64,000 nt of DNA, taken from contig NC_135879.1 of the NCBI RefSeq assembly GCF_964194155.1, forward strand, positions 24,986,001 through 25,050,000, written 5' to 3'. The translations under genes and the position numbers were made by a program. Origin of the DNA: Cetorhinus maximus. Lineage: Eukaryota. Shown one piece after another: positions 3,889 to 62,626 of this stretch (position 1 is its first letter; each line of letters starts with the position of its first letter). The notes under the pieces were generated by a model that was not told the origin of the DNA, did no database searches, and saw only the letters and a program-made list of their open reading frames with translations.

Positions 3889-5149
3889 AACTGGCAAAGA
3901 GGATAAAACAGGATTTAACCAAAGAAATCATGTTAGAAAGAAATCAGCACTGTACCTCGCCCAGTGATTGTAAGGAACAAGCTCTGTTGGAATTGAAGAA
4001 GTTATCCTCTCTCAAACTGCCACAATTTGGGAGAATTGATCCTTTTGAACCAGAAGATTGATCTCAATACCTAGAACACCTCACGTTCATTTTTCAAGCG
4101 AACAAGATTACAGCAGAAGGGAACAAAGCCTACAGTCTGATTCAAAGTTTGATGGAACCCAGTGCCCCAGATTCAAAGAATGTCAATGAATTGGTGGATC
4201 TTGTGAAGGGTCACTTTCAACCCAAGCCCTCAGTCATGATGAAGAGGTTCAGGTTTAATTTGTGAAACAGAGCCCTGGGTGAGACAATTGCGTGCTGTGT
4301 GGCAAATCTAAAGCAGCTAATGGAACATTGTGAGTTTGGTATGGCTCTGAATGGCATGCTCAGAGATTGTTTAGTGTGTGGTGTGAAAGAGGACTCTGTT
4401 CAGAAAAGATTATTGTCTTAAGTGAATCTGGATTTCAAGGAGGAACTAGAGATAGCGCTGGCCATGGAAAGTGCAATAAGAGATTCAAAAGCAATACAGG
4501 GTGCACAAAATGGCACCTTCCTCCACACCGGGCGGGAAACCTCAACCGAAAGAGGCGCGAAAAAGCGGGACTCTGCTGAGAAGCAGGAAACAGTCCCCGC
4601 TAGCCAAAGAATAAAGAAAAATAACTTAAACAATCAGCCTTTTAATGAATGGCAGTTTAAAACAATCGAATGCTACTATTGTCACAGAAATGGACATATA
4701 ATGAGGCAATGCAAGGAAAGTTTCAAGCAGGTTTGTAAACAAAAGAAGAAGCCCAATGAAATCTACAATGTAGAAGAGCCTGAAGCAACAAATTCAGACA
4801 TTTACTTGTTGTTTAACCTGAAAGTTGGAAAGACAGAACCAATATTTGCTACAGTGAAAGTAAATGGCAAACCTGTTAGAATGGAAGTCAACATGGGAGC
4901 TTTCACTACAGTAATTAGGGAACATACCTTCAGCTATTTGAATAATGGTGAACATCAGCTAAGTTTAGAAGAAACAGCCGCCAAGCTAAAAACATACACA
5001 GTGAAAACATTCAAGCAAAAGGCATAAGCAGAGTAACTGTCCATTATGGAAGCTCATCGGCAGAACTACCAGTGTTAGTATTGAGAGACAGAGGACCAAG
5101 CCTTCTAGGGAAAAATTGGCTAAGGGAAATCAACCTTGATTGACCACTG

Positions 5150-5750
5150 AGATTTCCAAAAGGAAGCTAGAAGCATTTGTGTTTTGAAAAAGGAGTGTGT
5201 AAGGACTCAGTAACCTGAAGAAATGCAAGCAGTCCTGAGCCAAAACCTGGAAGAACAGCAGAAGGAACTCGAAGAGACCCTGCTTGATGACAGAGTTCGA
5301 GACGAGGTGAGCAACCTTCGAAGGGAAAAAGAAAACCTGTTGAAAGACCTTCACACACTACAAGATTCCCTCAGGTCAAAGTTTGTACATCTGGAAAAGT
5401 ATGAAGAGAAACAGAAAGAATTTGTCACCTCTCTGAATATACTGAAGAATGCTTTGGCAGAGAAGACACAGCAATGCTCAATTTTTCAGGAGACAGCAAA
5501 CAAATACTAAAAAGAGGCAGAAGAGCTGAAGAATCAGCTAAATGAAGCCAAAGAGGCTTTGGAAGCAAAAGTCGCAGAATTTCCCAAGAAACAGACAGAT
5601 AATGAAATTTTGGGAGACTCAGCCACTGAACTCAGACAAGTTGAGCTTGCATCTGAGAGAAGTCTAGCCAACAGTGAAGCCAAAAAGAAGGCTGAGATTA
5701 AAGTCTGTGCCAGAAAGAAGGAGGTACATAGAAAGAAGATACAGAAATAC
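5150..5750 (+). pseudogene. Host-like coiled-coil coding segment inside the Gypsy pol region (UACA/ANKRD24/RAI14-like)
   Basis: ORFs 5223..5510 and 5559..5753 are in one frame, separated by one TAA. E/K/L/Q-rich heptad sequence with no RT motifs, at the position where RT should be. Confidence 0.6.
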
Positions 5751-5796
5751 TAATAGGGATTTAATTCTCGCAACATACGGATGCACTTTCGTAATA

Positions 5797-6522
5797 GGAC
5801 AGGATTTTACCATCGGTGAACGGGCCCCGCCCCCGCTTGCCGACGTGTAAAATAACGCACGGTGACGCCGGGCGGAATTCCCGGCGTCAGCGTGCCCCAT
5901 TTAAATTTTCGGGAAGGCAGGGGCATAGCAAAATCAGCTGTGTGCCTGCCGACCTGTCAATGGCCAATTGAGGCCATTGACAGAGTCAATTAAGTAATTA
6001 AAGGACCTGCCTGTCCAACCTTAAGGTTGGCGGGCAGGCCAGGAGCCCCGGCGGAAATTAGAAAAAGCATGAATCCTCATCCACGGGCAAGATGAGGTTT
6101 CATGTAGGGTTTTAAAAATTTTTAATAAAGTTTTTGTAAAAACTATGGACATGTCCCAACTTATGTGACAGTGTCATATGAGGGGACATGTTAGGGAAAT
6201 TTTATCATTCTATTTTTAGCTTTTTTACATTTAGAGCCGATCTCCCTGAGGCAGCACTTAGCCTCAGGGAGATGAGTGCGCTCTTTCATGCGCATGCGCG
6301 AAAGAGTGCACTCTCGATTTTGGGATTCACCACCTCCCCCCACCGCCCGCACAGGGACCGCACAGCGCTTCTTCTGTGCAGACATCATGTTGGGTGGGCC
6401 AATGAAGGCCCGCCCACATAAAATGGCACCGTGCCCCCCAATCGGGGGCGCCGATCAGGAGAGAGAGAGCCTGTGTGCGCCCACCCTTCAACTTCGCCCC
6501 CGACGGGGGGAAAATCCTGCCC
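5797..6522 (+). mobile_element. Harbinger-type MITE family B, complete, nested in Gypsy pol
   Basis: TIRs GGACAGGATTTT / AAAATCCTGCCC; ATA on both flanks; splits the pol motif LILATY..TFV|HRSGNQIAN. Confidence 0.88.
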
Positions 6523-8037
6523 ATAGGTCTGGCAATCAAATCGCAAATGCCAATGCCCTTAGTTGTTTGCCTTTACAAGAAAATGATGAGCACGTCCCAG
6601 TTCCACAGGAACTTGTTTTACTGTTAATTTTCTTAGATTCCTCACCAGTATGTGCTCAAAAGATCAGAGATTGGACAAGTCGGGACCCAGTCCTATCTCA
6701 AGTACGAGAAGAAGTGCAACATGGTTGGTCACAGGAGCCTGTATCTGACTAAATGAAACCGTACTTCGACAGAAGACACGAAATAACCAGCCAGGATGGC
6801 ATCTTATAGTGGGGAGCACAAGTAACAGTCCCTCCAAGGGGAAGGGAGCCACTTTTAATTGAACTACACAGTGCCCATCCAGAAATTTCCCAAATGAAGA
6901 CCAAAGCATGCAGCTATCGATGGTGGCCTGGGATGGATGGTGAAATAGAGAGTTTAGTAAAGCACTGTGGGCAATGTCAGGAACTGAAAAAGTTGCCAGT
7001 GACAGCTCCATTACACCCATGGGAGTGGCCAGGTAGACCCTGGGTGTGGTTACACATTGACTACATTGGACCTTTCCTGGAAACAACGTTTCTGCTCATT
7101 GTGACACCCATTCAAAATGGTTGGATGTATATGAGGTGAAGTCACCAACATCGGCCACTACAATTAAGAAACTACATCAGAGTTTTGCCATTCACGGACT
7201 ACCAAAAGTAGTAATTTCTGATAACAGCACGGCATTTACAAGTGCTGAGTTTCAACAGTTTATTAGCCTCAACGGTATCACTCATGTGAAAACTGCACCG
7301 TACCACCCTTCCTTAAATGGACTGGTTGAAAGGGTGGTTCAAATGTTCAAGGCGGGCATGAGAAAACTATTTGGAGTTACAGGACTACCCTTCATACAAC
7401 AACAGGTATCACACCTGTGGATTTATTGTTGAAACGCCTTATCAGGATGAGATTGAGCTAAATAATGCTGGATTTAGAGGGGAATGTGGACAGGAGTCAG
7501 GGAAGCCAGGAAACCCGATACAACTGGCATAGTCGCGTAGAGAAATTTAACAGTGGAGAGCCGGAATACGTGAAAAACTTCAGGGAAGGACCAAATGGGT
7601 TACCGGGTGAAATAAGTTTGGTGGCTGGACCTCTATCTTACCATGTGTAGGTGGAAGGCCGGATCATCTGTAAACATGTGGACCATTTAAGGAAGAGAGG
7701 GACAAATCACTAAGATTTGGTTCCACCAGTGATCATGAATGAGTTTGCGTTTCCTGTTGAGAATACTCAACCCAGAACTGAAATGCCTGATGTCCCTGTA
7801 AGAGCTAAGGATACAGGACTGCAAGTGCCCACCAAAGTATCTGATGTTCAGGCAACTCTGGAAAAGGAGGTTCCTGATGAAGAATCTGAAGTTGTGAAGT
7901 TGCGACGTTCCACACGTACCAGGAAACCACCTGAAAATCTGAACTTGTAAATTCCTTACCCAGTGTAAATATTATGTTGTCTTGAAAATGATGTACTTGT
8001 AAATATAATATGTATAGCCGAGTTAAAGGGAGAGGAT

Positions 8038-11255: not shown

Positions 11256-11363
11256 TGTGCAAAGTTTTTTGTATTTTTATTACTTCCTATTTTTGGTCCA
11301 CAATTAAAAAATTGTTCTCCCCTATACAACAGCCAAACTAACATTTTTGGTGTGCTGGATTAT

Positions 11364-14300
11364 GTTTTTTCTTATTCATTCATGGTATGTGCATGGTGCT
11401 GGCTAGGCCAGCATTTATTGCCCATTCCTAATTGCCCTTGAGAAGGTGGTGGTGAGCTGCCTTCTTCAACCGCTGCAGTGCCTGTGGTGTAGGTACACCC
11501 ACAATGCTGTTAGAGAGGGAGTTCCAGGATCTTGATCCAGCGACAGTGAAGGATCAGCGATATATTTCCAAGTCAGGATGGTGAATAGCTTGGAGGGGTG
11601 GTGGTGTTCCCATGTGTCTGCTGCCCTTGTCTTTCGAGATGGTAGTGGTCTTAGGTTTGGAAGGTGTTGTCTAAAGAACTTTGGTGAGTTCCTGCAGTGA
11701 GTGCATCCTGTAGATGGTACACACTGCTGCCACTGTGCATTGGTGGTGGAGGAAGTGAATGTTTGTGGATGGGGCGCCAATCAAACAGGCTGCTTTGTCC
11801 TGGATGGTATGAAGCTTCTTGAGTGTTGTTGGAGCTGCACTCATCCAGGCAAGTGGAAAGTATTCAATCACACTCCTGACTTGTGCCTGGTAGATGGTGG
11901 ACAGGCTTTGGGGAGTCAGAAGGTGAGTTATTCACCGCAGAATTCCTAGCCTCTGACCTGCTCTTATAGCACCATATTTATATGGCTAGTCCAGTTCAAT
12001 TTCTGGTCAGTAGTAACCCCCAGGATGTTGATAGTGGGGGATTCAGTGATGATAATGCCATTGAATGTCAAGGGGCGATGAGTAGATTCTCTCTTGTTGG
12101 AGACGATCATTGCCTGGCACTTGTGTGGTGTGAATGTTACTTGCCACTTGTTAGCCCAAGCCTGGATATTGTCCAGGTCTTGCTACATTTGGACATGGAT
12201 TGCTTCAGTATCTGAATGCTGTTGAACATTGTGCGATCATCAGCAAACATCCCCACTTCTGACCTCATGATGGAAGGAAGGTCATTGATGAAGCAGCTGA
12301 AGATGGTTGGCCCTAGGTCACTACCCTGAGGAACTCCTGCAGTGATGTCCTGGAGCTGAGATGATTGAACTCCAAAAACCACAACCATCTTCCTTTCGGC
12401 TAGGTATGACTCTAACCAGTGGAGAGTTTGCCCCTGATTCCCATTGACTCCAGTTTTGCTAGGGCTCCTTGATGTCACACTCGGTCAACTGCTGCCTTGG
12501 TGTCAAGGCCAGTCATTCTCACCTCACCTCTGGAGTTCAGCTCTTCTGTCCATGTTTGAACCAAGGCTGTAATGAGGTTGGGAGCTGAGTGGACCTGGGG
12601 GAACCCAAACTGAGCGTCAGTGAGCAGGTTATTGCTAAGCAAGTGCTGCTTGATAGCACTGTTGATGACCCCTTCCAACATTTTGCTGATGATGGAGAGT
12701 AGACTGATGGGGCGGTAATTGTCCGGGTTGGATTTATCCTGCATTTTGTGTACAGGACATACCTGGGCAATTTTCCACATTGCCGGGTGGATGCCAGTGT
12801 TGTAGCTGTACTGGAGCAGTTTGGCTAGGGGCTCGGCAAGTTCTGGAACAAAGGTTTTCTGTACTATTGCTGGAATATTGTCAGGGCCCATCACCTTTGT
12901 AGTATCCAGTGCCTTCAGCTGTTTCTTGCTATCACGTGGAGTGGATCTAATTAGCTGAACACTGGCATCTATGATGCTGGGGACCTCCAGAAGAGGCAGA
13001 GTTGGATCATCCACTCGGCACTCCTGGCAGAAGATTGTTGCAAATGCACTGATGTGCTGGGCTCCTGCATCATTGAGGATAGGGATATTTGTGGAGATTC
13101 CTGCTCCAGTGAGCTGTTTAATTGTCCACCCACATTCACAATTGGATTTGATAGGGCTGCAGAGCTTAGATTTAATCCATTGGTTATAGAATCGTTTAGC
13201 TCTGTCTGTCACTTGCTGCTTATACTGTTTGGCACACAAGTAGTCCTGTGTTATAGCTTCACCAGGCTGACACCTCATTTGTAGGTATGCCTGGTGCTGC
13301 TCCTGGCATGCCTTCCTGCACTCTTTAATGAACCATGGCTGATCCTCTGGCTTGGTGGTAATGATAGAGTGAGGATATGCTGTGCAATGAGGTTACATAG
13401 TGTCCTTGAGTACAATTCTGCAGCTGCTGATGGCCCACAGTACCTCATGGTTGCCCAGTCTTGAGTTGCTAGATCTGTTTGAAATCTATCCCATTTAGCA
13501 CGGTGGTAGTGAAACACAAAACAATGGAGGGTATCCTCAATATGAAGACCAGACTGCGTCTCCACAAGGACTATGCAGTGGTCATTCCTACTAATACTGT
13601 CATGGATAGATGCATCTGCAACAGGCAGGTTGGTGAGGATGAGGTCAAGTGTGTTTTTCCCTCTTGTTGGTTCACTCACCACCTTCCACAGACCCAGTCT
13701 AGCAGCTATGTCCTTTAAGACTTTGCCAGCTCAGTCTGTAGTGGTGCTACCAAGCCACTCTTGGTGATGGACATTGAAGTCCCCCACCCAGGGTATATTC
13801 TCAGTGCTTCCTCCATGTGGTGTTCAATCTGGAGGAGCACTGATTCATCAGCGGAGCAGTGGGGTGGGGAGGCAGTACATGGTAACCAGCAGGAGGTTTC
13901 CTTGCCCATGTTTGACCTGATGCAATAAGACTTCATGGGGTCTGAAGTTAATGCATTGAGGACTCCCAGGGCAACTCCCTCCTGACTGTATACCACTGTA
14001 CCACCACCTCTGCTGGGTCTGCCTGCCATTGGGACAGGGTGGTTGGTAACATTGGTATTTGGGACATTATTTTAAGGTATGATTCCGTAAGTATAACCAT
14101 GTCAGGTCACTGCTTGACTAGTCTGTGGGACAGCTCTCTCCATTTTGGCACTAGCCCCTTGATGTTAGTAAGGAGAACTTTGCAGAGTCGACAGTAATTT
14201 CCAGTGCCTAGGTCGATGCCAGGTGGTCTATCCAGTTTCATTCTTCATTGACTTGTTTTTAACAGTTTGACACAACTGAGTGGGCCATTTCAGAAGACAT

Positions 14301-14565
14301 GTACAAGTCAACCACATCCCTGTGGGTCTGTAGTCAATTGTAGGCCAGACCAGGTAAGGACAGCAGATTTCCCTCCTAAAGGGCTTAAGTGAACCAGGTG
14401 GGTTTTTATGAGAATCGACATGGCTATGATCAGACTTCCAATTCCAGATATTTTATGGAATTTAAATTCCACCATCTGCCCTGTGTGAGATTCAAACCCT
14501 GGTCTCCCAGAGCATTACCCTGGGATTACTAGTCTATCAATAAAACCACTAAACCACCACCTCCC
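11364..14565 (-). mobile_element. Near-full-length single-ORF LINE (APE+RT; CR1 group, Zenon-like) with a tRNA-like 5' head; degenerate
   Basis: APE start LLTNIKGL...DMVILTESYL at ~14170, then RGGGTVVY, EPTRGKNTLDLILTN, NYRPISLLSIISK, QFGF, GVPQGSDLGPTIF, MFADD and HH.CTVAAVCTIY. 3' tail catgaatgaataag-A-rich. Multiple frameshifts and stops. Confidence 0.88.
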
Positions 14566-17787: not shown

Positions 17788-18170
17788 ATACAGTACAGTT
17801 CCAATGCTACATCAAATCTGGTTTGAAAAGTGCCCAATGACCCTTTGCATTTCCTGAGTATGCTCCAGTGTGGACACTTCTATTCTCATTTTCAACACAC
17901 TTATCAAATTTGGCATCAGATCAACTGCAGAAACCGAGGCGGATTCAAATACCTGGTTCAACCTGATAATCAACCTTGTACGACACTTCATTAACAATGT
18001 TAACTTACTTTTTGTTTAAACTTACAGTGTTAGCATAGCCAGACTACTCAATATATTTTGATAGATAATATTATTAAAGATCACTTCAATTTCCCTGCAG
18101 GAAATTATTTTTCATCTAGAGCACAAGGAAAATTTATAATCAACAAATTTTTGAGTTGATAAATACTCAC

Positions 18171-18470
18171 TTAAATATGGCGGCTTGTAAGGCGCACGTG
18201 TGTTGGGCAGAAGTGCATCATATTCTTTCTTTTCCAAATTAGATGGATGTGATTTTTCTTTTCCAAATGTAGAGAAGGATTTCTCCCCAGTCTGCTCTGG
18301 AGCTTCATAGACCTCGGTGTCAGGCACAGAGTCCATGCCGGGGACATGCAGATTGCTGCGGTAATCAGGACCTTGGCGGCCATCTGTGGGTACAAAGGTG
18401 GGCATCCAACAACGATCCGAGTGTCCCAGTGCTTTACACTCTTCTGTGCAATTGGAAAAGAGGTCAGCAC
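18171..18470 (-). CDS. PCDH10: PCDH10 exon 4 (300 nt, CM2 and WIRS motifs)
   Basis: Acceptor tttatttttgtag. Translates (G)ADLFSNCTEECKALGHSDRCWMP...KSFSTFGKEK...RAPYKPPYL. Donor A|GTGAGT; phase 1 to 1, compatible with exon 3 across a ~23 kb intron. Confidence 0.95.
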   Translation of the reverse strand: MLTSFPIAQKSVKHWDTRIVVGCPPLYPQMAAKVLITAAICMSPAWTLCLTPRSMKLQSRLGRNPSLHLEKKNHIHLIWKRKNMMHFCPTHVRLTSRHI

Positions 18471-19840
18471 CTACAAAAATAAACCAAAATAAACAGCATT
18501 CAATTATGATATTAGGAATGTTAACCTTCTTCTGAGGGGTGCAGGATACCATTTCTATATTAGTTGAGAAGGTTCTGACAGGTCTTAGGATGCCTGCCAC
18601 TAGAGCCTCCAATATATTTGCTCTGACTCAGCACACTCATCCGGTACAAATTTACACAATTTATCTTTAATTCTGTTCTGTACATAGATAAACACCAAAC
18701 AGTAAGGGCCCACAAAGTGATTTTCCCTTCAGGTCTCACCCCATGGTATGATGAACAAAGATCGTCCAGATACAGCACTACACTCAGAACTGCAGGGCCA
18801 AGGACATTTTAAAATTCAAATGAGCCTTTCCTCTGGTTAACAGCACTTATAGATTTTCCTATTGTAAATTTAAACATGCACTTTTTAAAGGGTATGTCTA
18901 CCCTGCTTGATGATGCAGACAAGTAGAAAGGTCATGTTTGTGTCCTGCTCAATTGTGATGCTGTTGGAAGAAGGCTCTCACTCTGCTTCTCACTTATGCA
19001 TAAAAACTGATTTACAGTTATGTCCAGAGTGACTATGATTGTTGATACTGCAGGCACCACTTGTAATACACAGACAGTGGTACAGTTCTAATTACAGATA
19101 AGGACTCCATGTTAATATAGCTTTAAGATATATAAGGCACTAATGAACTGATGTCATGCACCAGTGAAAATGCTTCGTTAGCTTATCTGTTACAAGAGAA
19201 GCCACAAGGACTGGTGTGCTACAGCTTCCAAAGTCACTTTAGACAGTGGCTTACTGCATTATGCTTGTGTGTTATACAGAGTTAGAATTTATTTTTTTGA
19301 AATTTGTAAATGATTTAATGTTTACCGGGTGATTATTGTCAGTTGTAGGAATATTTTCACTTTAAACATTGAGTGCACTACTTCTATTCTACCTCAACAA
19401 TGTAGCTAAACTCCTTTTTCAAAAGAGTACCAATATGATATTGTTATTATTAAGCAAGTTGCATCTCTACATCCTTGTGCCCTCTCTCACCGTGGAAATG
19501 AGTACAGGAGCTTGACCATTTCTCAAGCATGTTGTGAGCTTGTGGGGGCTGAAACTTCACTTTTCCTGGGTGCCAAAACAGAAGTCGTGGACTGGCTGCC
19601 CATTATACAGTGCCCCCAAATTCCGTTTCTATTTCGGTATGTTGTGGGCAGCCAATCCCCTATTGCTAGCTTTGTGCCAAAGCCGAGGTTGAATTTCACC
19701 CATGTGGCCTCACAACTTATAATGTTGTCTCGATTGCCATGTTAGCTCCTCACAATGTACAGGCACCAACACTAAATGAATCTGTGATTAAGTTGCCATT
19801 TTCTCCCGAAGTTCAACATATGTGGATTTTTAAAAGTCTT

Positions 19841-20066
19841 TCATGGGATGTAGCCGTCACTGCCAAGGCCAGCACTGGTTGCCCATCCCTAATTGTCCTT
19901 GAACTGGGTAGCTTACTCAGCCATTTCAGAGGGCCGTTAAGAGCCAACCGCATTGCTGTGGGACTGCAGTCACATGTAGGCCAGACCAGGTAAGCATGGC
20001 AGCTTTCCTTCCCGAAAGGGCATTAGTGAGCCAGGTGGGTTTTTACAACAATTAACATTGGTTTCA
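19841..20066 (-). mobile_element. SINE-like deletion derivative of the 11.4-14.6 kb LINE family (head lost at the MITE junction)
   Basis: 19841-19902 matches the LINE 3' UTR (11380-11440). It is joined directly to 19903-20050, which matches the LINE 5' region (14275-14415). Confidence 0.75.
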
Positions 20067-20068
20067 TG

Positions 20069-20790
20069 GGGCTGAATATTCACCTCAGTGTGTGGGTGCG
20101 CTCCCAATATGCATGAGTCTGAAATAGCGCGCGATGACATTAAGCGAGCGTCCCAACGTCATCACACACTCGCGCAATATTTCGGTTGGCGGGCACATGC
20201 AAGAGGTGGCAGCATGCCCGCTGACAATTAAGAGGCCTATTAAGGCCCTTACTCAATTAATTAAATTGAAACTTTCGCTGCCCGTCCGACTGTTCGGCTG
20301 GCGGGCGGGCGAAAAGGCCAAGCAGCCTTTACATTTTTAACGAAACCTCATCCACGGGCGGGACGAGGTTTCGGACAGTAAATAAGAAACCAAAAAAGGT
20401 TTTTAGGACTCATTTATAACATGTCCCTGCTCATGCGACAGAGTCACATGAGGGGAGATGTTTTCCTTATTTTTGAAATCTTTCCTTTGAATGTTAAAAT
20501 TCTTCAGCTCCCAGAGGCAGCTCTATGCCTTCAGGGAGCTTTCACTGCATGCTCCCCTGCGCATGCGCACACTTCGGTGCTTGCCCTCCTCCCCACACCA
20601 CTCCCCCTCCCCCACCCACCCCCAACCTTGGCAGCACTGAGTGTTTCAGCACACGATTCACTCTAGCTGCCCGTTAATTGGCTAGCCAGCATGAAATCGC
20701 AGTCGGGGCCCAATCTTGGGTAGTGGTCGGTTTTGCAGCCATTCCTGGGCCCACCCACCGCGCCCGCCCGACGAGGGGAAGATCCTCCCC
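20069..20790 (+). mobile_element. Harbinger-type MITE (family B-related)
   Basis: Termini GGGCTGAATATT / AAGATCCTCCCC; shares the internal hairpins gaaacctcatcc..ggacgaggtttc and catgtccc..gtcacatgagggg. Confidence 0.82.
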
Positions 20791-25620: not shown

Positions 25621-26470
25621 CTCATGGATGAAAAGGGACAGTAGCAACATAAGTACAAAATTGGCTGAGTGACAGGAAACAGAGAGTAGTGGTAAACGGT
25701 TGTTTTTGGACCAGGGGAAGATTTATACCAAAGTTCCCCTGGGATCAGTGTTAGGACTCCTGTTCTTCCTGATATATACTAATGACCTAGACCTTGGTGT
25801 ACAGGGCACAATTTCAAAATTTGCAGACGATGCAAAACTTGAAGGTATTGTGAACCATGGGGAGAATAGTGTAGAACTTCAAAAGTACATAGACAGGTTG
25901 GTGAAATGGGTGGACAGGTGACAGATGAAATTTAATGCAGACAAGTGTGAAGTGATTCATTTTTGTAGGAAGAATTGAGAGAGACAATATAAAGAGTACA
26001 AAGCAGATGCAAGAGCAAAAGGGACCTGGGTATATTTGTGCGTAAATCATTAAAGGTAGTGGAACAGGTTGAGAGAGCAATTAATTAAGTATATGGCATC
26101 CTATGCTTTATCCAATAGTGGCATACAGTGCAAAAGCAAGGAAGTTACGTTAAGCCTGTATAAAATACTGGTTCAGCCTTAACTGGAGTATTGCATCCAG
26201 TTCTGGGCACCACACTTTAGGAAGGATGTGAAGGCATCAGAGAAAGAGCAGAAAAGATTCATGAGAACGGTTTCAGGAATGAGGAACTTCAGTTACATAG
26301 AAAGATTGGAGAAGTTGGGACTGTTCTCCTTGGAGAAGAGAAGGTTGAGAGGAGATTTGATAGAGAGATTTGAGATCATGAGGGGCCTGGGCAGAGTAGC
26401 TAGGGATAAACTGTCCCATTGGTGGAAGGATCAAGGTTCTGTTGGGGTGAACAGCCTGTTTCTGTGTTTT
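25621..26470 (+). mobile_element. CR1 LINE RT and C-terminal fragment
   Basis: VPLGSVLGLLFFLIYTNDLD...SKFADDAKL and LEKLGLFSLEKRRLRGDLIE. Confidence 0.9.
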
Positions 26471-27234: not shown

Positions 27235-29160
27235 TTGCTGAAAAAAGAGACATTTGTAGCTTTTCGTCTTGCCTCATCAAGACACTTCACAAGAATACCA
27301 ATTTAAAGGGAGAAACAACAATTTGTACTGCATGTGAAGAGAGTGCTGATTGGTTGACAAGTGGACTCTGATTGGCAGAGGCATTGCCATGGAGAATGCA
27401 CCAGTGATGATGACTAATAGTTAACTGTCAAGCATTTTTTGAAATTTAAACCAGGCAGCTTGACTCTGATTGGTCAAGGTATTGCCCTGAGGAATGAATC
27501 AGGCTGTCACTTATTTTGTTTAGCTGAAAGAGGTGCATTGTGTGTATATGTTCTTTCTGTCTGCAAAGAACAGGGCCCTGTGTATATGTAGCTTCCAGTA
27601 CATGTAAAAGCACCACACTGCAAGCCTGACTGACAATCTTAAATTGGTTGTCAGCATAATTCTTAGCACACTGAGGATTATTTAGCAAACATTATCTAAT
27701 CGCAGAATCACATCTAATGTTGGCCACTGTGTTGAGTTTTGCAAGCACGGGCTGGTTGAGTACAGCCTGTAACTTGCCCATTCCAAACAACAGCTGGGAC
27801 ATGCTGTTTGATATCATCTGCCAGTCTTTGGGATGTATGGCCTACATACCTAGCATCACACTGGCACTGAAATTCATGTACCACATTACTCATTTGTGTG
27901 ATAAGCAGAATGTCTTTTAGGCTTGACGGCAGCGTCCTGTTAGTGGCAAATACCACTCGTGTTGCTGCTGCATAGAAGCAGCGTGAAACAGCTAGCTTCA
28001 CCTGTTGCTCAAACTTTTGAGATACCTTGCCCTTCCAGTGTAATCTGAGGTAGACTGGGCACTTTTTAGATCCAGAAATGATGGCCTTAGGCCCGTTCAT
28101 GAGTTTGTGTGATATACAGCGTGAAATGATCTGATCAGGGTAGCCATTATCCTGCAGGATACCTCTGATGAGCCCTATTTCAGCATCAAGCTTGCATGGT
28201 AAGCAAATGGCTCGGGCCTTATTTACAAGGTTGTCGATAAGACCAATCTTATACTGTGTGGAACATTAAGAATCCCAACGTGTATATTGACCAATGAAGG
28301 TAGGCTTGTGGTAGACCATGGTAGAGAACCCCCTGGCAGATTTCTCAACTAGCACGTCAAGGAAGGAGAGTTAATTTTTCTGCTCCATTTCAAAGGTGAA
28401 TTTGAGCGCAAGATGGAGCCCATTAGGACATGTAAGAAAATTATTACATGCAGCTGTGGATTTAAATATAGCAAACATATCATCCACATATGGAAAATAT
28501 GTGAGGGGTAGGAGGTTAGGTGTCGGTCCATCAAAGACATGTTTCCCATGGAATCCAACAAAGATTCAAGAACTGGGCCTAGAGGGGAACCAATGGCAAT
28601 GCCATGTATTTGGACATACATGGTGTCATTAAAACTGAACTCAACTGCGCGAGTTGCTGAGTTCATAAATTCAATGAATACTGATTTGCGCAATGGTGGA
28701 GGGTCTAGATCCACATGATATAGTGCTGTAGCACTAATATCTATGGCTCCTTAAGAATTACGCTGACAATCAATTTAAGATTGTCAGTCAAGCTTGCAAT
28801 GTGGCTCATTTGCATGTACTGCAAGCTACATATATTAATACCCAGGGCCCTGCTCTTTGCAGACAGAAAGAACATGTACATAATGCACCTCTTTCAGCTA
28901 AACAAAATAAGTGACAGCCATTTTCTGACTCATTCCTCAGGGCAATGGCTTGACCAATCAGGGGCAGGGTGCCTGGTTTAAATTTCAAACAATGCTTGGC
29001 AGTTAACTGTCAGTCACCATCACTGGTGCATTCTCCTTGGCAGCACTTCTACCAATCAGAGTCCACTTGCCAACCAATCAGCACTATCTTCACATACAGT
29101 ACAAATTGTTGTTTCCACCTTATAATGGTATTCTTGCGGCGTTTCCTGATGAGTGTAACA
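27235..29160 (-). mobile_element. Penelope-like element, 5'-truncated, with inverted pseudo-LTRs
   Basis: RT motif FSFNDTMYVQIHGIAIGSPLGPVL (ORF 28349..28714) and GIY-YIG-like NVVHEFQCQCDARYVGHTSQRL..IKQH (ORF 27714..28100). ~400-bp inverted repeats at 27272-27665 and 28752-29153. Confidence 0.9.
27250..27285 (-). ncRNA. Degenerate minimal type I hammerhead ribozyme motif in the Penelope pseudo-LTR
   Basis: The minus strand reads TTGATGA-G-GCAAGA-C-GAAA-AGCT. The opposite arm keeps CTGATGAG at 29146-29153. Confidence 0.5.
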
Positions 29161-42471: not shown

Positions 42472-42654
42472 TCAAATGGGAGAGAGCAGAGAGTGCAGAG
42501 TTAATAGACCTAAATATGTGAGGCGGAGAAAGTGAAGATGGCATTCAAAGTATGAAGGAGATGTGTAAGGACAAACTGTGCTGGGTAAAATGAGAGAAAA
42601 CCTGTGAGTAAGGAAGGAGACAGGACAGGTCTGGGCGCAGTTGCAGTATCTTAC
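42472..42654 (-). CDS. PCDH10: Intron-1 read-through tail of a putative short PCDH10 isoform
   Basis: The exon 1 frame stays open past the donor (SNE-VRYCNCAQ...LLSPI*). Short isoforms that read through the exon 1 donor are known for mammalian PCDH10. Confidence 0.45.
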   Translation of the reverse strand, partial: VRYCNCAQTCPVSFLTHRFSLILPSTVCPYTSPSYFECHLHFLRLTYLGLLTLHSLLSPI

Positions 42655-45132
42655 CTCGTTTGACAATATACTCCCATTGGAAATGATGTCAGGCTGCTGG
42701 TCCGTGTACCCAGTGATGATGGCGCCACAGGGATTGTGGTCAGCGTCCGTACTCCGGGCTGGGCTACAAGGTTTCAAGAACATGAGATCCGTTTTGGCCG
42801 ATTCCGGGGTCAGGCACACCTGGTAACAGTAATTCTGGCTGTGGTGCCCAAAGGTCCCTTCCTCCACCGAGACCTGAGCCGCGTTGGTGTTGCTGGTCTG
42901 CACCAGCATGATGTCCGATTTGCTGAGTTTCTTCTTCCTGTTCCTCGCCTGCCTGCAACAGGCGCAGCACTCGCCGGCCAGGCAGCTGTAGATGTTCAGC
43001 TTCTTGTCCTTCTGGCACCGAATGGCCAACCCGATCATGGCCAGGAGGAAGACGAAGGACACCGAGCCCAGGGCGATGATGAGGATGAGGGTCAAATCCA
43101 GCGAGTTGTCCTTGGGATTCCCGGCCCGGTTGCCCCGCTCCCCCTGGCGATCCACGGCGCTGTCCACGGCCAGCACAAGGATGGTGGCGGTGGCGGACAG
43201 AGGAGGTTGGCCATGGTCCCTCACCTCGATCAGGAGCTCGTAGGGGGCGCTGGGGTCCTTCTTGGTGCTGGGCAAGCGCCTGGCTGTCTTGAGCTCCCCA
43301 CTCCTCCAGTCCATCCTGAAGAGCCCCAGTTCATTGCCCTTGGCGATGTAGAAAGTGAGGCGGGCGTTATCCCCGTCATCCGCGTCCACCGCCACTAACC
43401 TGGCCACCAGGTAGCCCGGCTCGGCCGAGCGGGGCACGATTTCTTTGGCGCTGCCGTTCCTGGCCACGGGCGACACGATGGACGGCGCGTTGTCGTTTTC
43501 GTCCACGATGATGATGTTGATGGTGGTGTTGCTGCTCAGGGGAGGACTCCCTGAGTCCTTAGCCTGAACCGTGAAGCTGAATTCTTTAAGCTGCTCGTAA
43601 TCGAAAGAGCGCAAGGCGTACAGGTAGCCATTCTCTGAGTTTATAGAGACATAGGTGAAAACGGACATCCCCTGAATATCACACTCCAATATGGAGTAAG
43701 AGATATAGGCATTCTGCCCTACATCGGGGTCCACAGCAGTCACGGCGTAAATATAAGCCCCGGGAACGTTGTTCTCAGTGACATGCACATCGTAGGAAGG
43801 TTGCGAGAAGCTGGGTGCATTGTCGTTCTCATCAGCCACTTGCACCTTGATGGACTTGCTGGAGGCCAGAGGGGGTGAGCCCCTGTCCTTGGCCATGATG
43901 GTGATGGTGTAGGAGTCGGTGAGCTCCCGGTCCAGCGGCCCGTCCGTCACGATGGTGTAGTAATTCTTAAAGGACGATTTAAGTTTGAAGGGGACCTGGC
44001 CCAGGATCTCGCACTGCAGCTGCCCGTTCTCAGCCGAGTCGCGGTCGGTGACACTCAGGAGGGCCACCACGGTGCCCGGGGCTGCGCTCTCGTTCACCGA
44101 GTCGGACACGGTGCTGAAGCTGATCTCCGGGGCGTTGTCGTTCACGTCGGTAACTTTGACCAGCACTTTGCAGTGAGCCGGCACCGCGTTGGGCCCCAGA
44201 TCTTTCGCCTGCACGTAGATCTGGTGCAGGCTGCTCTCCTCGTAGTCGATCGCCCCCTTCACCTCGACCCAGCCGGTCCTGGGCTCGATGCTGAACAGCT
44301 CCTTGACCCGGGGCGAGACGTGGTTGCTGAACGAGTAGACCACCTCGCCGTTCTTGCCCTGGTCTCGGTCGGTGGCGTTCAGCTGGATGAGCAGGGTGCC
44401 CAGGGGCGCGTTCTCCGGCAGGCTCACCGTGTAGACGGACTGTTCGAAGACGGGCACGTTATCGTTGGAGTCCAGGACCCTGATGGTGAGCAGAGCCGTG
44501 CCCGTCCGCTGGGGGAGCCCCCCGTCCACCGCCGTCAGCACATACCGGTGCACCGCCTGCTGCTCCCGGTCCAGGGCTTTCTCCAGCACCAGCTCGGCGA
44601 ACTTGTTGCCGTCTCCTTGGGTCTGCACGTCCAGCTGGAAGTAACTGTTGGGGGTGATCTCGTAGGTGCGGAGCGAGTTGCTGCCCACGTCCGGGTCGAA
44701 GGCGCTCTCCAGCGGCAGGCGGGTGCCGGCGGACGCGCTCTCGGAGATCTCCACCGTCAGGTCGGACTCCGGGAAGCTGGGCGGGTTGTCGTTGATGTCC
44801 ACGATCTCGATCTCGACGCGGAAAAGTTCCAGGGGGTTCTCCAGGAAGACCTCGAGGTGCAGCAGGCAGCTCGGGCTCTGGCGGCAGATCTGCTCCCGGT
44901 CGATCTTCTCGTTGACGAACAGCACCCCGTTCTCCAGGTTGACCTCCAGGTACGGCGAACGGGAGCTCGCCACCGTCTGGAAGCGGCGTGCCGCCAGCTT
45001 GGTCACGTCCAAGCCCAAATCCTCGGCGATATTCCCCACGAAGGTCCCATGCTCCTGCTCCTCGGGCACCGAGTAGCGGATCTGGCAGGCAACGCGATCG
45101 ACCAGCATGCAAACCAGGAAAAAGAAGATCAT
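42655..45132 (-). CDS. PCDH10: Protocadherin-10 coding exon 1 (signal peptide, EC1-EC6, transmembrane segment, proximal cytoplasmic tail)
   Basis: ORF 42472..45138. First ATG at 45132 gives MIFFFLVCMLVDRVACQIRYSVPEEQEHGTFVGNIAEDLGLD. Repeated cadherin motifs (DxNDNxP, LDRE, AxDxG), TM segment LILIIALGSVSFVFLLAMIGLAI, and tail QNYCYQVCLTPESAKTDLMFLKPCSP...DIISNGSILSNE all match vertebrate PCDH10. Donor GAG|GTAAGA follows 42655; 2478 nt, phase 0. Confidence 0.97.
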
Positions 45133-46100
45133 CTCCACAGCGCGCGAACCACCTCTCGCCCTCTCGGAAGGAAGTTCAAGCGGTTGCTTTAGTTCTCTCT
45201 CTTTTTTTTTAAATAATAAAAAAATGTTTTTTTAAAAATAAAAAATAAAAAAAATTATCATTGACCTCGCACCCTCTCTCCTGCTTTGAATTTTTCATCA
45301 CATTTGTCCGCAGGAGCCAGTTACGTGAAGCAACCTCATCGCACACCCGAAGCTGAACAACTTCTGGCTTCTCTTTACTGAGTGAACGGCTCCTTTGATC
45401 CCTCACTGTTCAGCAGTGGCCTGGATGAAGAGATTCCCGGGGGTTTTAGCTTCGCATCAACCCCTCTGACAGAGCGGCCGGTCATATCTTCGATGTCAGC
45501 AACGACAGTTGAGGCGAGAGTTTCCCATCAGACACTTTTTTTTTTGTTTTTGGAGCTCTCCTCCCCTCATCTGGGTGTCCCTGGGTCTTTTTTTTGTTGT
45601 TATTTAAAACCTCTCTTTCCTTTCTCTGCAACACCCACTCTCCCCCCCCCCCACTACCACCACCACCTTCTTCCCTCCCCACTCCCAGTCTGCCACTCTT
45701 GAGCTTTCACTTCTGCTCTCTCTCCCCCCCACCCCCGCCTCCCCCTGCTTTCTCCGTTGCAGTGACCGGCTCCTGTGCACTTCCCTCTGCTGACAGATTG
45801 CAGCTCGCTGGGCTCCAGCGCTCTGCTTTTGCGTTGCGCCCTCTTCGCGCCAGCCAATGGCAGCCCCGGGCGCCTGGAGCCGCGCTCCGATTGGCTGGCG
45901 GCGGGGCACCGAGCGGCTGTGCGTCTGGCCCGGGCCGGCCAATCAGCGGGCAGAGCGGGCGGGACCCGCTCCCCTTCCCCCCCCCACCCCTTGGCCGCGC
46001 AGTTAACGTGCCAGTCTCTCGACTTGCCCAGAGTTAGTGGGCTGCACTAGTGTAGGTGCCCATACTAATCAGACCATATCACAGCGCATCTCCACACGAA
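45133..46100 (-). promoter_or_regulatory. PCDH10 5' UTR and CpG-island promoter with three CCAAT (NF-Y-type) boxes
   Basis: High GC and CpG density. CCAAT at 45854-45858 and 45939-45943, ATTGG at 45890-45894. No obvious TATA box. The transcription start is not resolvable from sequence. Confidence 0.7.
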
Positions 46101-54677: not shown

Positions 54678-55058
54678 CAGCACAGTAGCAGCAGTGTGTA
54701 CCATCTACAAGATGCACTGCAGGAATTCACCAAGGCTCCATGGGCAGCACCTTCCAAACCCACGACCTCTGCCATTTAGAAGGACAAGGGCAGCAGATAG
54801 ATGGGAACACCGCCACCTGGAAGTTCCCCTCCAAGTCACTCACCATCCTGACTTGGAAATATAAGCTGTTCCTTCACAGTCGCTGGGTCAAGATCCTAGA
54901 ACTCCCTTCCTAGCGGCATTGTGGGTGTACCTACACCACAGGCACTGCAGCGGTTAAAGAAGGCAGCTCACCGCCACCTTCTCAAGGGCAATTAGGGACT
55001 GGGCAATAAATGCTGGCCTAGCCAGCGAAGCCCACACCCCATGAATGAATAAAAACAA
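54678..55058 (+). mobile_element. 5'-truncated 3' end of the same LINE family as 11364-14565
   Basis: TVAAVCTIYKMHCRNSPRL; tail gggcaataaatgctggcctagccagcg...catgaatgaataaaaa. Confidence 0.88.
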
Positions 55059-55269
55059 CATTGTTGAGTTTCTGACCTGAGGGGCTGTTGTGTTTCTGAT
55101 CTGAGTTTTGTCAGCTGGAGAGGGGCTGGTGGGGAGCTGTGACGTTATTCAGCACAGATCTGGACGGTTACATGGATGGTTCATAATGGGGTGGCCCCTG
55201 GAACCTCTTGGTAACCCGTGACCGATAGTAGGGGCTACTTGGAAACAAGCCGTGCGTGCACCGTCTAGT

Positions 55270-60245: not shown

Positions 60246-61389
60246 GTGGGTGGAATTTTCTGAGCCCGCTGATGGCAGGCTTGACAGGTGGCATGCATGG
60301 AAAATATGGTGTGACCTGCTTCAGGACAGTGTGAAGGCAGGTCGTGATTGTCCGCTCAGCCCACTGATGGCGGGTCATGTTTCCTACCATCGGTCAGCGG
60401 GGAACTAATTGTAATACATCAGCACATAGTTAAAAGGCCATCCTGCCAGGCTCTTGGAACCCCGCCGTATTGTCTGTCCACGTCAGTGGGAAAGCACGCC
60501 GATGTGTTTCACAATGTGAAAGCAGGCAACGTGCACTTGGTGGCCTTCACTTTGGAGGAACTGAGGTGAGTGGGCAGCAGCATTCTCCACAGCTCACCCA
60601 TTGTTTACAGGCCTCAGGGGCACAGAGGGGTGCATGGGGGCAACTGATTGCCTGGCCCCAGAGACGACTGCTGAAGGTGGAGGGTGGGGGGTGGCGGTGT
60701 CCGGGGGCAAGTGCTGGCCAGCCTCAGAGGCGACCATTGTCGGTGGGTGGGGCAGGGGGGGATCAGTGCTGCCCTGGTGCTGCAACCCGCACACAGGCAA
60801 TCAAGGTGGGGGGGCAGTTACCGACCAGCCATGGCTCACTGTTGCTCCTGGGCAGCATGTACAGGAAGTGGCCATGCATTAGGGACACCTGTATAAACTG
60901 ACCGTGCCTCTGAAACTGAGACAGATCAGGCGCAGCCACAGTGATATGTTTGGGGTCGGGTTCCTAGCCTGTCCACCCATGCAAGCATCGTGGAGGCACC
61001 AAAGGGCCACCAAGCGGTCCATACCTTACCCATCCCAAGGATCCCCCCAGCACAGACTTCGAATCCACCACCACTTCATTGGAGCGCAGAGCAGTTGGAC
61101 TGCACATGTTGTACAATCTCCTCGCCAACGCTGGCCATGTAGCAGTCACTGCTGGAGGCGCTCACAGCCCGTTGCAATCTCAGCCTCCTGGTTTGGAACA
61201 GTGTCCCCCATGTCGCAGGTAGACAGGGCAGAGCCATGCTGTGCACTCATCTCTGGCCATTTGAGGGGTGACCATCACTCTCCGGGAATTGTTAAGGGCC
61301 GGTTACACAGGGCCAGGAAAGGTGCTAAGTACAGCCATGATAACCATGTCTCCCTCTCTTTCATGCTGCAGGAGGACCACGTCAGGACT

Positions 61390-62626
61390 ATGGATCCTGG
61401 TGACCTAGCTGTATGCCTGATGGTCTACAGAGACCTTAGAAGACGGAGTAGAGAGAGACTGAGGCTACTGGCCGTGCAAAGGCAGGAGCAGCAACCTTAT
61501 GAAAGAGGGGCAGCATGGACTCCTGTACATGCTGCCCAGGAGCGACAGTGAGCCACAGTGAGCCATGGCTGGTCAGTGCATGGCAACACCCAGGGTCTAT
61601 AGACACCACCTGCCATTCCTGCAGATGACTGAGAACCAATGTCGCTGACAACTGCGCATGTCTAGGGACCTGGTGGCTCACATCTGCCGCTTACTACAGG
61701 ACTTGGCGTCAAGGGGACATGGAGTGCATCCACTGCCAGTGGTTGTGAAGTGACTGCGGTGCTCAATTTCTATGCCAGTGGCTCCTATCAGGACTCCACG
61801 GGTGACCTCCACAATCTGCCACCCACAATTGCATCAATGAGGTCATGGATGCCATCTTCTCCATGGCACACGACTTTGTGCATTTCACCCAGGACCGGGA
61901 CAGCCAGGATGCAAGGGCCATTGGATTCGCCCTGATTTCAGGATTCCCACAGGTGCAGGGTGCAGTTGACTGCACTCATGTGGTGCTCAGGTCTCCATTG
62001 CTACACTCAGTGGACTTCATCAACCACAAGGGATTCCACTCACTGAGCATGCAGCTGGTATGCGACCACCAGAACCGTATCCTGCAGGTATGTGCACAGT
62101 TTCCAGGGACTGTGCATGATGCCTACATCCTGAATTGCTCGCAGATCCCTGCAGTCTTCCAGGGTCACTGAGGCTGCAGTGTTGGTTTATTGTGGACAAG
62201 GGCTACCCACAGAGGCCGTGGCTGATGACACCTGTGTGGTGGCCTCAGACTGCAGCAGAGTGAGACTATAATGAGGCTCATGCTGCAGCTCGCAACTTGG
62301 TGGAGCAGACCATTGGGCTACTGAAGATCCGATTCCGGTGCCTGGACCGGTCTGGTGAGCCCTGTGATACAGTCTGCAGAGGGTGTTACACATCATCAAT
62401 GTTGGCTGCGCCCTTTACAACCTGGCACTGCAACGGGGAGAGGAGCTGATTGAGGAGGAGCTGGAGGAGTTGCACATCTCCTCCAATGAAGAGCACGCCG
62501 ATGGGAATGAGGGTGATGGGGTCCTCGATGGTGACAATGATGGGGATGATGCTCTCACACTGGCTAGATGAGGCAGGGGCACTCAGGAGGCCCTCATAGC
62601 TGCCAATTTGTGGAGGATGATGATAA
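61390..62626 (+). pseudogene. Harbinger DDE transposase (HARBI1-like), disrupted
   Basis: VLNFYASGSYQ, GFPQVQGAVDCTHV, NHKGFHSLSMQLVCD, FPGTVHDAYIL, DKGYP..PWLMTP, YNEAHAAARNLVEQTIGLLKIRFRCLD and CALYNLA; several stops and frameshifts. Confidence 0.92.

Follow-up and report, generated by a model that had tools for sequence, protein, structure and literature searches.

Background

LINEs and SINEs are usually kept apart by two properties, LINEs being coding and mostly made by RNA polymerase II (Pol II), SINEs being non-coding and made by RNA polymerase III (Pol III). The BovB elements, with their SINE-derived 5' ends, are a precedent for a LINE that crosses this line. [quoted passage not shown] In the literature searched, which excludes Repbase Reports and subscription journals, this passing remark was the only earlier account found of a coding LINE that is driven by Pol III or headed by a tRNA.

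A single-ORF Zenon LINE accompanied by a short element that unites its two termini is likewise known from Lepidoptera, in the form of the Persaeus SIDE and its CR1-Zenon partner (PMC6740152). According to the parts of that paper compared, however, Persaeus lacks a Pol III promoter and is not homologous to tRNA, 5S or 7SL, whereas the LINE and the short form described here both start with a tRNA-like head. The shark SINEs SacSINE1 (Deu), HE1 (V) and CmiSINEs (CORE) likewise combine a tRNA head, a conserved body and a LINE-derived tail, but in the sections compared they are non-coding and partnered by L2 or HER1, unlike the coding Zenon (PMC5499810, PMC3747384). Single-ORF members of the CR1/L2 groups have been noted repeatedly (for instance in passages of PMC4120745, PMC6740152 and bioRxiv 788562), and 'CR1-Zenon like' LINEs have been counted in the whale shark (bioRxiv 443036, in part). 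The relevant portions of Stuart et al. 2026 (PMC13343379) report Zenon from five elasmobranchs, the coelacanth and hagfish, in every case without ORF1 and with a poly-A tail.

Here we present the analysis of a window, the whole 64,000-nt stretch of Cetorhinus maximus DNA under study (from an assembly of 4.0 Gb in 5,087 contigs), in which an initial annotation had marked a single-ORF LINE with a tRNA-like head. The family proved to be a catalogued one; its unusual part is the tRNA head together with a strand-specific avoidance of T runs.

Results

A decayed LINE copy and its parts

The element occupies 11362-14565 on the minus strand, with family homology from 14565 to about 11365, in agreement with the 3.2-kb APE-RT element first claimed. 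Pfam recognized RVT_1 (PF00078) in it and Exo_endo_phos_2 (PF14529) in a sister copy; the two endonuclease fragments of the window gave no match on their own. The A-box-like (14556-14546) and B-box-like (14498-14487) motifs are present as described, within a tRNA-like head (14470..14565) that forms the family 5' end. Next comes a conserved body (14274..14469) common to the LINE and a companion SINE, at the end of which the two diverge, and then a LINE-specific leader (14182..14273), where an AUG at 14241 starts a short ORF out of the endonuclease frame, the endonuclease frame itself forming a basic, AUG-less extension. The endonuclease N-terminus lies at 14181, 384 nt from the element start (425 nt in the family majority), close to the ~400 nt originally given. 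The single ORF for APE endonuclease and reverse transcriptase (RT) covers 11428..14181, and the 3' tail shared with the SINE (11362..11440) holds the final ORF codons, a hairpin, AATAAA and an A-rich end near 11362.

The window copy is dead. Its identity to the family majority is 86.4%, its ORF survives as seven tblastn segments spread over three frames, and the copy carries three runs of at least four T (T4+), one of them within the head, so that Pol III read-through is now impossible. It is a decayed member of a 3.3-kb single-ORF APE-RT LINE family with thousands of copies. The window also contains a 5'-truncated copy of the companion SINE, its body fused directly to the LINE tail (19830..20070, minus strand), and, from a further copy of this Zenon LINE, a 3' fragment (54680..55061, plus strand).

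The body of the window copy folded no better than its shuffles (z 0.48), and an Rfam scan of three copies gave no credible match between the body and a ribozyme or any other known RNA. By eye, no likeness was seen between the body and the Deu, Meta and UCON3 central domains in the alignments compared from the supplement of PMC7245038.

The head is the 5' end of the family

An alignment of 35 near-full-length copies defined a family majority, a unit of 3,293 nt, with conservation falling at the G run before the A box and unrelated flanks beyond. The majority contains one ORF, of 934 codons with APE and RT domains, and the copies have A-rich ends, as befits Zenon; the longest ORF in the 425 nt before the endonuclease has 63 codons, leaving it, again as in Zenon, without ORF1. 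Because many of the 35 copies came from a head-containing query, two samples were drawn by position on a single contig: the first 30 matches of an endonuclease 19-mer and the first 40 matches of the body-to-LINE junction, five copies being shared between them. The endonuclease-picked copies began at positions 1-20 (13 copies), 21-100 (9), 101-316 (6) or just before the endonuclease (2), so that 28 of the 30 extend into the head or body. None of them has an ORF1 or an ORF-sized alternative 5' region, and upstream of 17 truncated copies only short other repeats were shared, at varying distance and orientation, with no ORF1. From the junction side, positions 1-20 are reached by 21 of 40 copies; 32 continue into the endonuclease, and 11 span the full length. 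Exact 19-mer counts were 5,373 for the body-to-LINE junction, 7,692 for the endonuclease and 30,646 for the 3' end of the ORF, with 0 for reversed controls; since copies are about 10% diverged, true numbers are probably several times higher.

Many copies thus share a single unit composed of head, body, one APE-RT ORF and A-rich tail, and the tRNA-like head is a real, consistent 5' end of a coding LINE family, a point on which the 35-copy alignment and both position samples agree. The target-site duplications by which the insertions were expected to be bounded did not materialize: they are mostly absent, at least 7 flank bases being shared in 4 of 24 full-length copies versus 4.5% of mismatched pairs, and none adjoins the window copy.

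The family is a catalogued Zenon

Judged by sequence matches, and within the portions of the paper compared, the family is already catalogued: Stuart et al. 2026 (PMC13343379) include it among their Zenon consensuses from elasmobranchs. Two motif searches of Table S2 matched Zenon rows only, in the material covered, and over its first 400 nt CarCar_Zenon-1 is by eye nearly the same as our family majority, the respective lengths being 3,288 and 3,293. Like the family here, the elasmobranch consensuses compared have a poly-A tail and no ORF1. Within the first 400 nt of the rows, head and body start all seven elasmobranch sequences (CarCar_Zenon-1, RhiTyp_Zenon-1, ScyCan_Zenon-1, HypSab_Zenon-1 and SquAca_Zenon-1/2/3), and the head is missing from the two hagfish rows and the one coelacanth row. 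Both the family and its loss of ORF1 are therefore known, and the head stands in the published sequences, yet unremarked in the portions compared: 'tRNA', 'Pol III' and 'polymerase III' have 0 occurrences in the main text, the SINE junction motif has 0 matches in the supplement, and the portions compared mention neither the head, the avoidance of T runs nor the companion SINE.

As Zenon elements normally have no ORF1, its absence is ordinary here. The initial annotation had set the locus against the rule that CR1-group LINEs normally have ORF1; an ORF1-less coding LINE is what the copies bear out, but as an oddity the observation does not stand.

The nearest proteins show 40-47% identity, are mostly 900-1,050 aa long and lie on contigs of 3-4 kb, the closest named ones coming from Branchiostoma and Amphiura. 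The RT phylogeny that had been proposed was built with FastTree from 143 RT regions (one sequence was left out because its overlap was too short), with an RNase H-bearing element as the root; in this tree, which contains no named Zenon, the shark element falls within a 0.998 clade of 89 invertebrate-type sequences, apart from the canonical CR1 of the same genome. Having no ORF1, let alone an esterase ORF1, and clustering separately from vertebrate CR1, it is not a canonical vertebrate CR1. A metagenome scan with one protein found nothing, and a scan of a viral collection gave one short match. As a side observation, many GTDB MAG contigs (L239-L318) turned out to be eukaryotic LINEs, which seem to stem from contamination by the host.

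A genuine but degenerate likeness to tRNA

The A..B box pattern matches once in the window, at 14556, versus 0.03 matches per shuffle, a figure that is optimistic because the pattern was composed after seeing the site. ARAGORN at default settings found no tRNA in the window and called a tRNA-Thr in the family majority at a relaxed threshold only. Rfam found no tRNA in the window copy; a better copy gave a full-length tRNA alignment below the cut-off (14.8 bits, E=4, with an insert of ~20 nt), and a third copy none. Aligned to 22 tRNA genes of this genome, which represent five anticodon types only, the LINE majority reached a best z of 5.4 (Val), the SINE majority 6.6 (Thr) and the window copy 4.5 (Lys). 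The B box is no more conserved among copies than neighbouring positions, as expected if copies decay neutrally. By these comparisons the head is truly tRNA-like, though degenerate: the tRNA-related 5' head with A and B boxes that marks tRNA-derived SINEs (SINE2) is present, with weak tRNA similarity.

The coding strand avoids T runs

Pol III transcripts cannot contain T4-T5 runs. The scan for T4+ terminators that had been suggested for the consensus came out as Pol III predicts: the family majority has 0 such runs, and six TTT, in 3,293 nt, and the SINE majority, true to the SINE2 rule of no internal terminator, also has 0, versus the 3 of the window copy. Within the ORF there are 4 T3 runs versus 12.5 in synonymous-codon shuffles (p=0.0004), while the 0 T4 runs versus 2.1 in the same shuffles is not significant (p=0.08); recoding the ORF by fourfold-site frequencies gives an expectation of 4.9 T4 runs versus 0 observed (p=0.006). 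Runs of A, C and G are not depleted but lie at expectation. For comparison, 29 CR1 copies of this genome, treated likewise, yielded a majority with 13 T4 and 45 T3 runs, at expectation, and the raw copies differ tenfold, with 0.42 T4/kb in the 35 family copies versus 4.25 in the 29 CR1 copies. Among 160 loci of other LINEs, all 80 intact ORFs (those of at least 800 aa) carry at least one T4, the lowest counts being 1 and then 6.

Some relatives share part of this bias. L242, L212 and L236, whose 5' ends are not visible, have 0.4, 0 and 2.2 T4/kb, respectively, with T3 about four times higher than in the shark element, and L242 is depleted under the recoding test too (p=0.014). Phe is as scarce in several invertebrate relatives as in the shark protein, so part of the T bias may predate the head; the T-run-poor relatives reflect either a partly inherited composition or the use of Pol III in those lineages too. 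A search for tRNA heads with relaxed ARAGORN upstream of the invertebrate relatives gave eight scattered calls in 6 of 64 regions, none convincing, the closest low-T relatives having no 5' ends to search. Among invertebrate relatives, P0004, P0007, P0012, P0014, P0020, L242, L212 and L236 (one from Branchiostoma) match the shark element in their poverty of Phe or of T runs; they may also be Pol III-headed, or may indicate a bias older than the head.

A coding strand without T4 runs and with depleted T3 fits Pol III transcription but does not show it, because the low-T relatives are T-run poor as well and the ORF is opened by no AUG.

The leader and the start of translation

No in-frame AUG precedes the endonuclease in the family majority, although the first 425 nt contain 13 AUGs. 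One of these, 77 nt upstream of the endonuclease, starts a 35-codon ORF in another frame; its offset is kept in 25 of 35 copies, and the AUG can be seen by eye in six of the seven published elasmobranch consensuses (PMC13343379, in the portions compared). The Lys/Arg content of the leader is 31% in the endonuclease frame versus 4% in the uORF frame, and homologues have a median of 20% in the extension (22 scorable of 60 examined). As the endonuclease frame is Lys/Arg-rich in homologues too, the basic AUG-less stretch probably forms the authentic N-terminus of the protein, to which non-AUG initiation, internal initiation or a -1 shift would give access. Non-canonical initiation in ORF1-less LINEs is treated as an open question in the part of PMC3894237 compared.

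Three other candidates were rejected. In 12 of 40 copies, as well as in the Squalus consensuses, TAA comes immediately after the TTG at the SINE/LINE junction, which rules out this TTG as a start codon and likewise rules out read-through of the stop just upstream of it. Restart at the uORF stop would cost the endonuclease its conserved first strand; moreover, the older subfamily described below does not have that stop. A close relative, P0017, has a motif just before the endonuclease at its N-terminus, presumably 2A-like; the shark element has no such motif.

A companion SINE and two subfamilies

In a SINE of ~400 bp, the first 316 nt of the LINE are followed directly by its last 77 nt, final ORF codons included; each of the two parts is 90% identical to the LINE. 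Its junction has 5,613 exact matches, about as many as the LINE junction. Of the two elements, it alone is short and non-coding as a SINE2 should be; the 3.3-kb LINE with its ORF is not. Heads have diverged by 11.8% in 14 SINEs versus 10.1% in 24 LINEs.

A diagnostic insertion of the SINE is present in 4 of 24 LINE heads. A targeted pattern for it gave 107 sites, and 25 of 40 fetched continue into the endonuclease. The majority of this older subfamily (from the 22 longest copies) is 95.5% identical to the main subfamily, is more diverged (13.4%) and bears the head; it has one T4, at a CpG site, which we infer to be a decay artefact. Since the Squalus consensuses have the head type with the SINE insertion, this type is probably ancestral. 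The SINE may have arisen from the LINE by deletion, or its head may have been captured by the LINE. Further internal-deletion derivatives of the LINE, with breakpoints other than the main SINE junction, were seen at L118, L121, L127 and several of L470-L509.

Discussion

The initial annotation had proposed an autonomous SINE-LINE hybrid that may be driven by a tRNA-derived promoter. Its structural half, a tRNA-like head on a coding LINE family, holds; its Pol III half is read from sequence. That a coding retrotransposon is transcribed by Pol III in some form, including one in which translation is left to other transcripts, we regard as probable. More specifically, we lean modestly towards the RNA of the Zenon copy being made by Pol III from the A and B boxes of the head.

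The fullest version of this reading, in which elasmobranch Zenon would be an 'autonomous SINE', Pol III-transcribed end to end, translated without a cap or an in-frame AUG, and turned into a complete SINE by a single internal deletion, is tentative and falls a little short of an even bet. Under the favoured reading, with the A and B boxes of the head as promoter, an ancestor of the shark-and-ray lineage would have gained the head from a tRNA or a tRNA-SINE, every full-length insertion would bring an internal promoter with it, and Pol III terminators would have been removed by selection from the entire length of the RNA. Target-primed reverse transcription is established for LINEs; here it would copy the RNA by way of the 3' hairpin and A tail, and the ~400-bp SINE, with the same two ends, would ride on the enzyme of the LINE. 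The weakest step is translation of the uncapped RNA, most likely by non-AUG or internal initiation or by a -1 shift from the conserved uORF. A SINE with the head of the LINE needs no other promoter. If true, a 3.3-kb coding element in many thousands of copies under a tRNA promoter would break the LINE/SINE split, would be an example from nature of translation from a long Pol III transcript, and would offer a one-step route from LINE to SINE.

The strongest competitor, unlikely in our estimation though deserving serious weight, is that the head was captured from the 5' end of a SINE and today functions within an internal Pol II promoter or the 5' UTR, the RNA being capped and polyadenylated, as in other LINEs, and the T-poverty inherited. 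The 934-codon protein has to be translated, which favours a capped RNA, and the AATAAA before the A tail suits Pol II. An inherited composition would agree with the low-T, Phe-poor relatives outside sharks and with the clade- and host-dependent base composition of LINEs (bioRxiv 788562, in the portion compared). Against this, it is T on the coding strand alone that is depleted, and for T3 the depletion survives codon control; the A and B boxes are kept in the shark and ray consensuses, as far as these were compared; and 13 AUGs in the first 425 nt poorly suit cap-dependent scanning.

A rather improbable third reading divides the labour: Pol III would make the uncapped, reverse-transcribed RNA, and the protein would come in trans from capped host read-through of copies in genes, which makes the element a giant SINE carrying the gene of its helper. 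This accounts for the purge of T runs and at the same time for the difficulty of translating an uncapped RNA, and the SINE partner shows that the enzyme acts in trans. It is also in keeping with four RNA or RNA-guess assemblies whose contigs span the whole element, although they bear no strand, start or level. A sequencing-run search found the element in three coded organisms, two small-share metagenome runs being left out of the evidence. An ORF intact across sharks and rays would, however, be simpler if the copied RNA were also the translated one, and the absent AUG troubles capped transcripts too.

The last reading, a chance juxtaposition or one-off recombinant in which, at this single locus, a truncated LINE received a SINE at its 5' end by insertion or recombination, might appeal to the abundance of head-plus-tail SINEs and the scarcity of bounding target-site duplications, but has next to no chance after the copy survey, which refuted it with the same junction in 5,373 exact matches, in two subfamilies and in the portions compared of the published consensuses of five species.

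Other features of the window

A protocadherin-10-like gene has its large first exon at 42472-45231 on the minus strand (best PDB match protocadherin-10) and a likely downstream cytoplasmic exon at 18112-18627 on the same strand. The Zenon copy shares this strand and is situated downstream of both, either within a later intron or past the end of the gene. Other decayed mobile elements, among them a second LINE RT fragment, lie at 25626-26377 (plus), 27714-28750 (minus), 4422-7432 (plus) and 60883-62171 (plus); from the look of their translations, we take the remaining ones to be Penelope-like, LTR/gypsy-like and Harbinger-like fragments.
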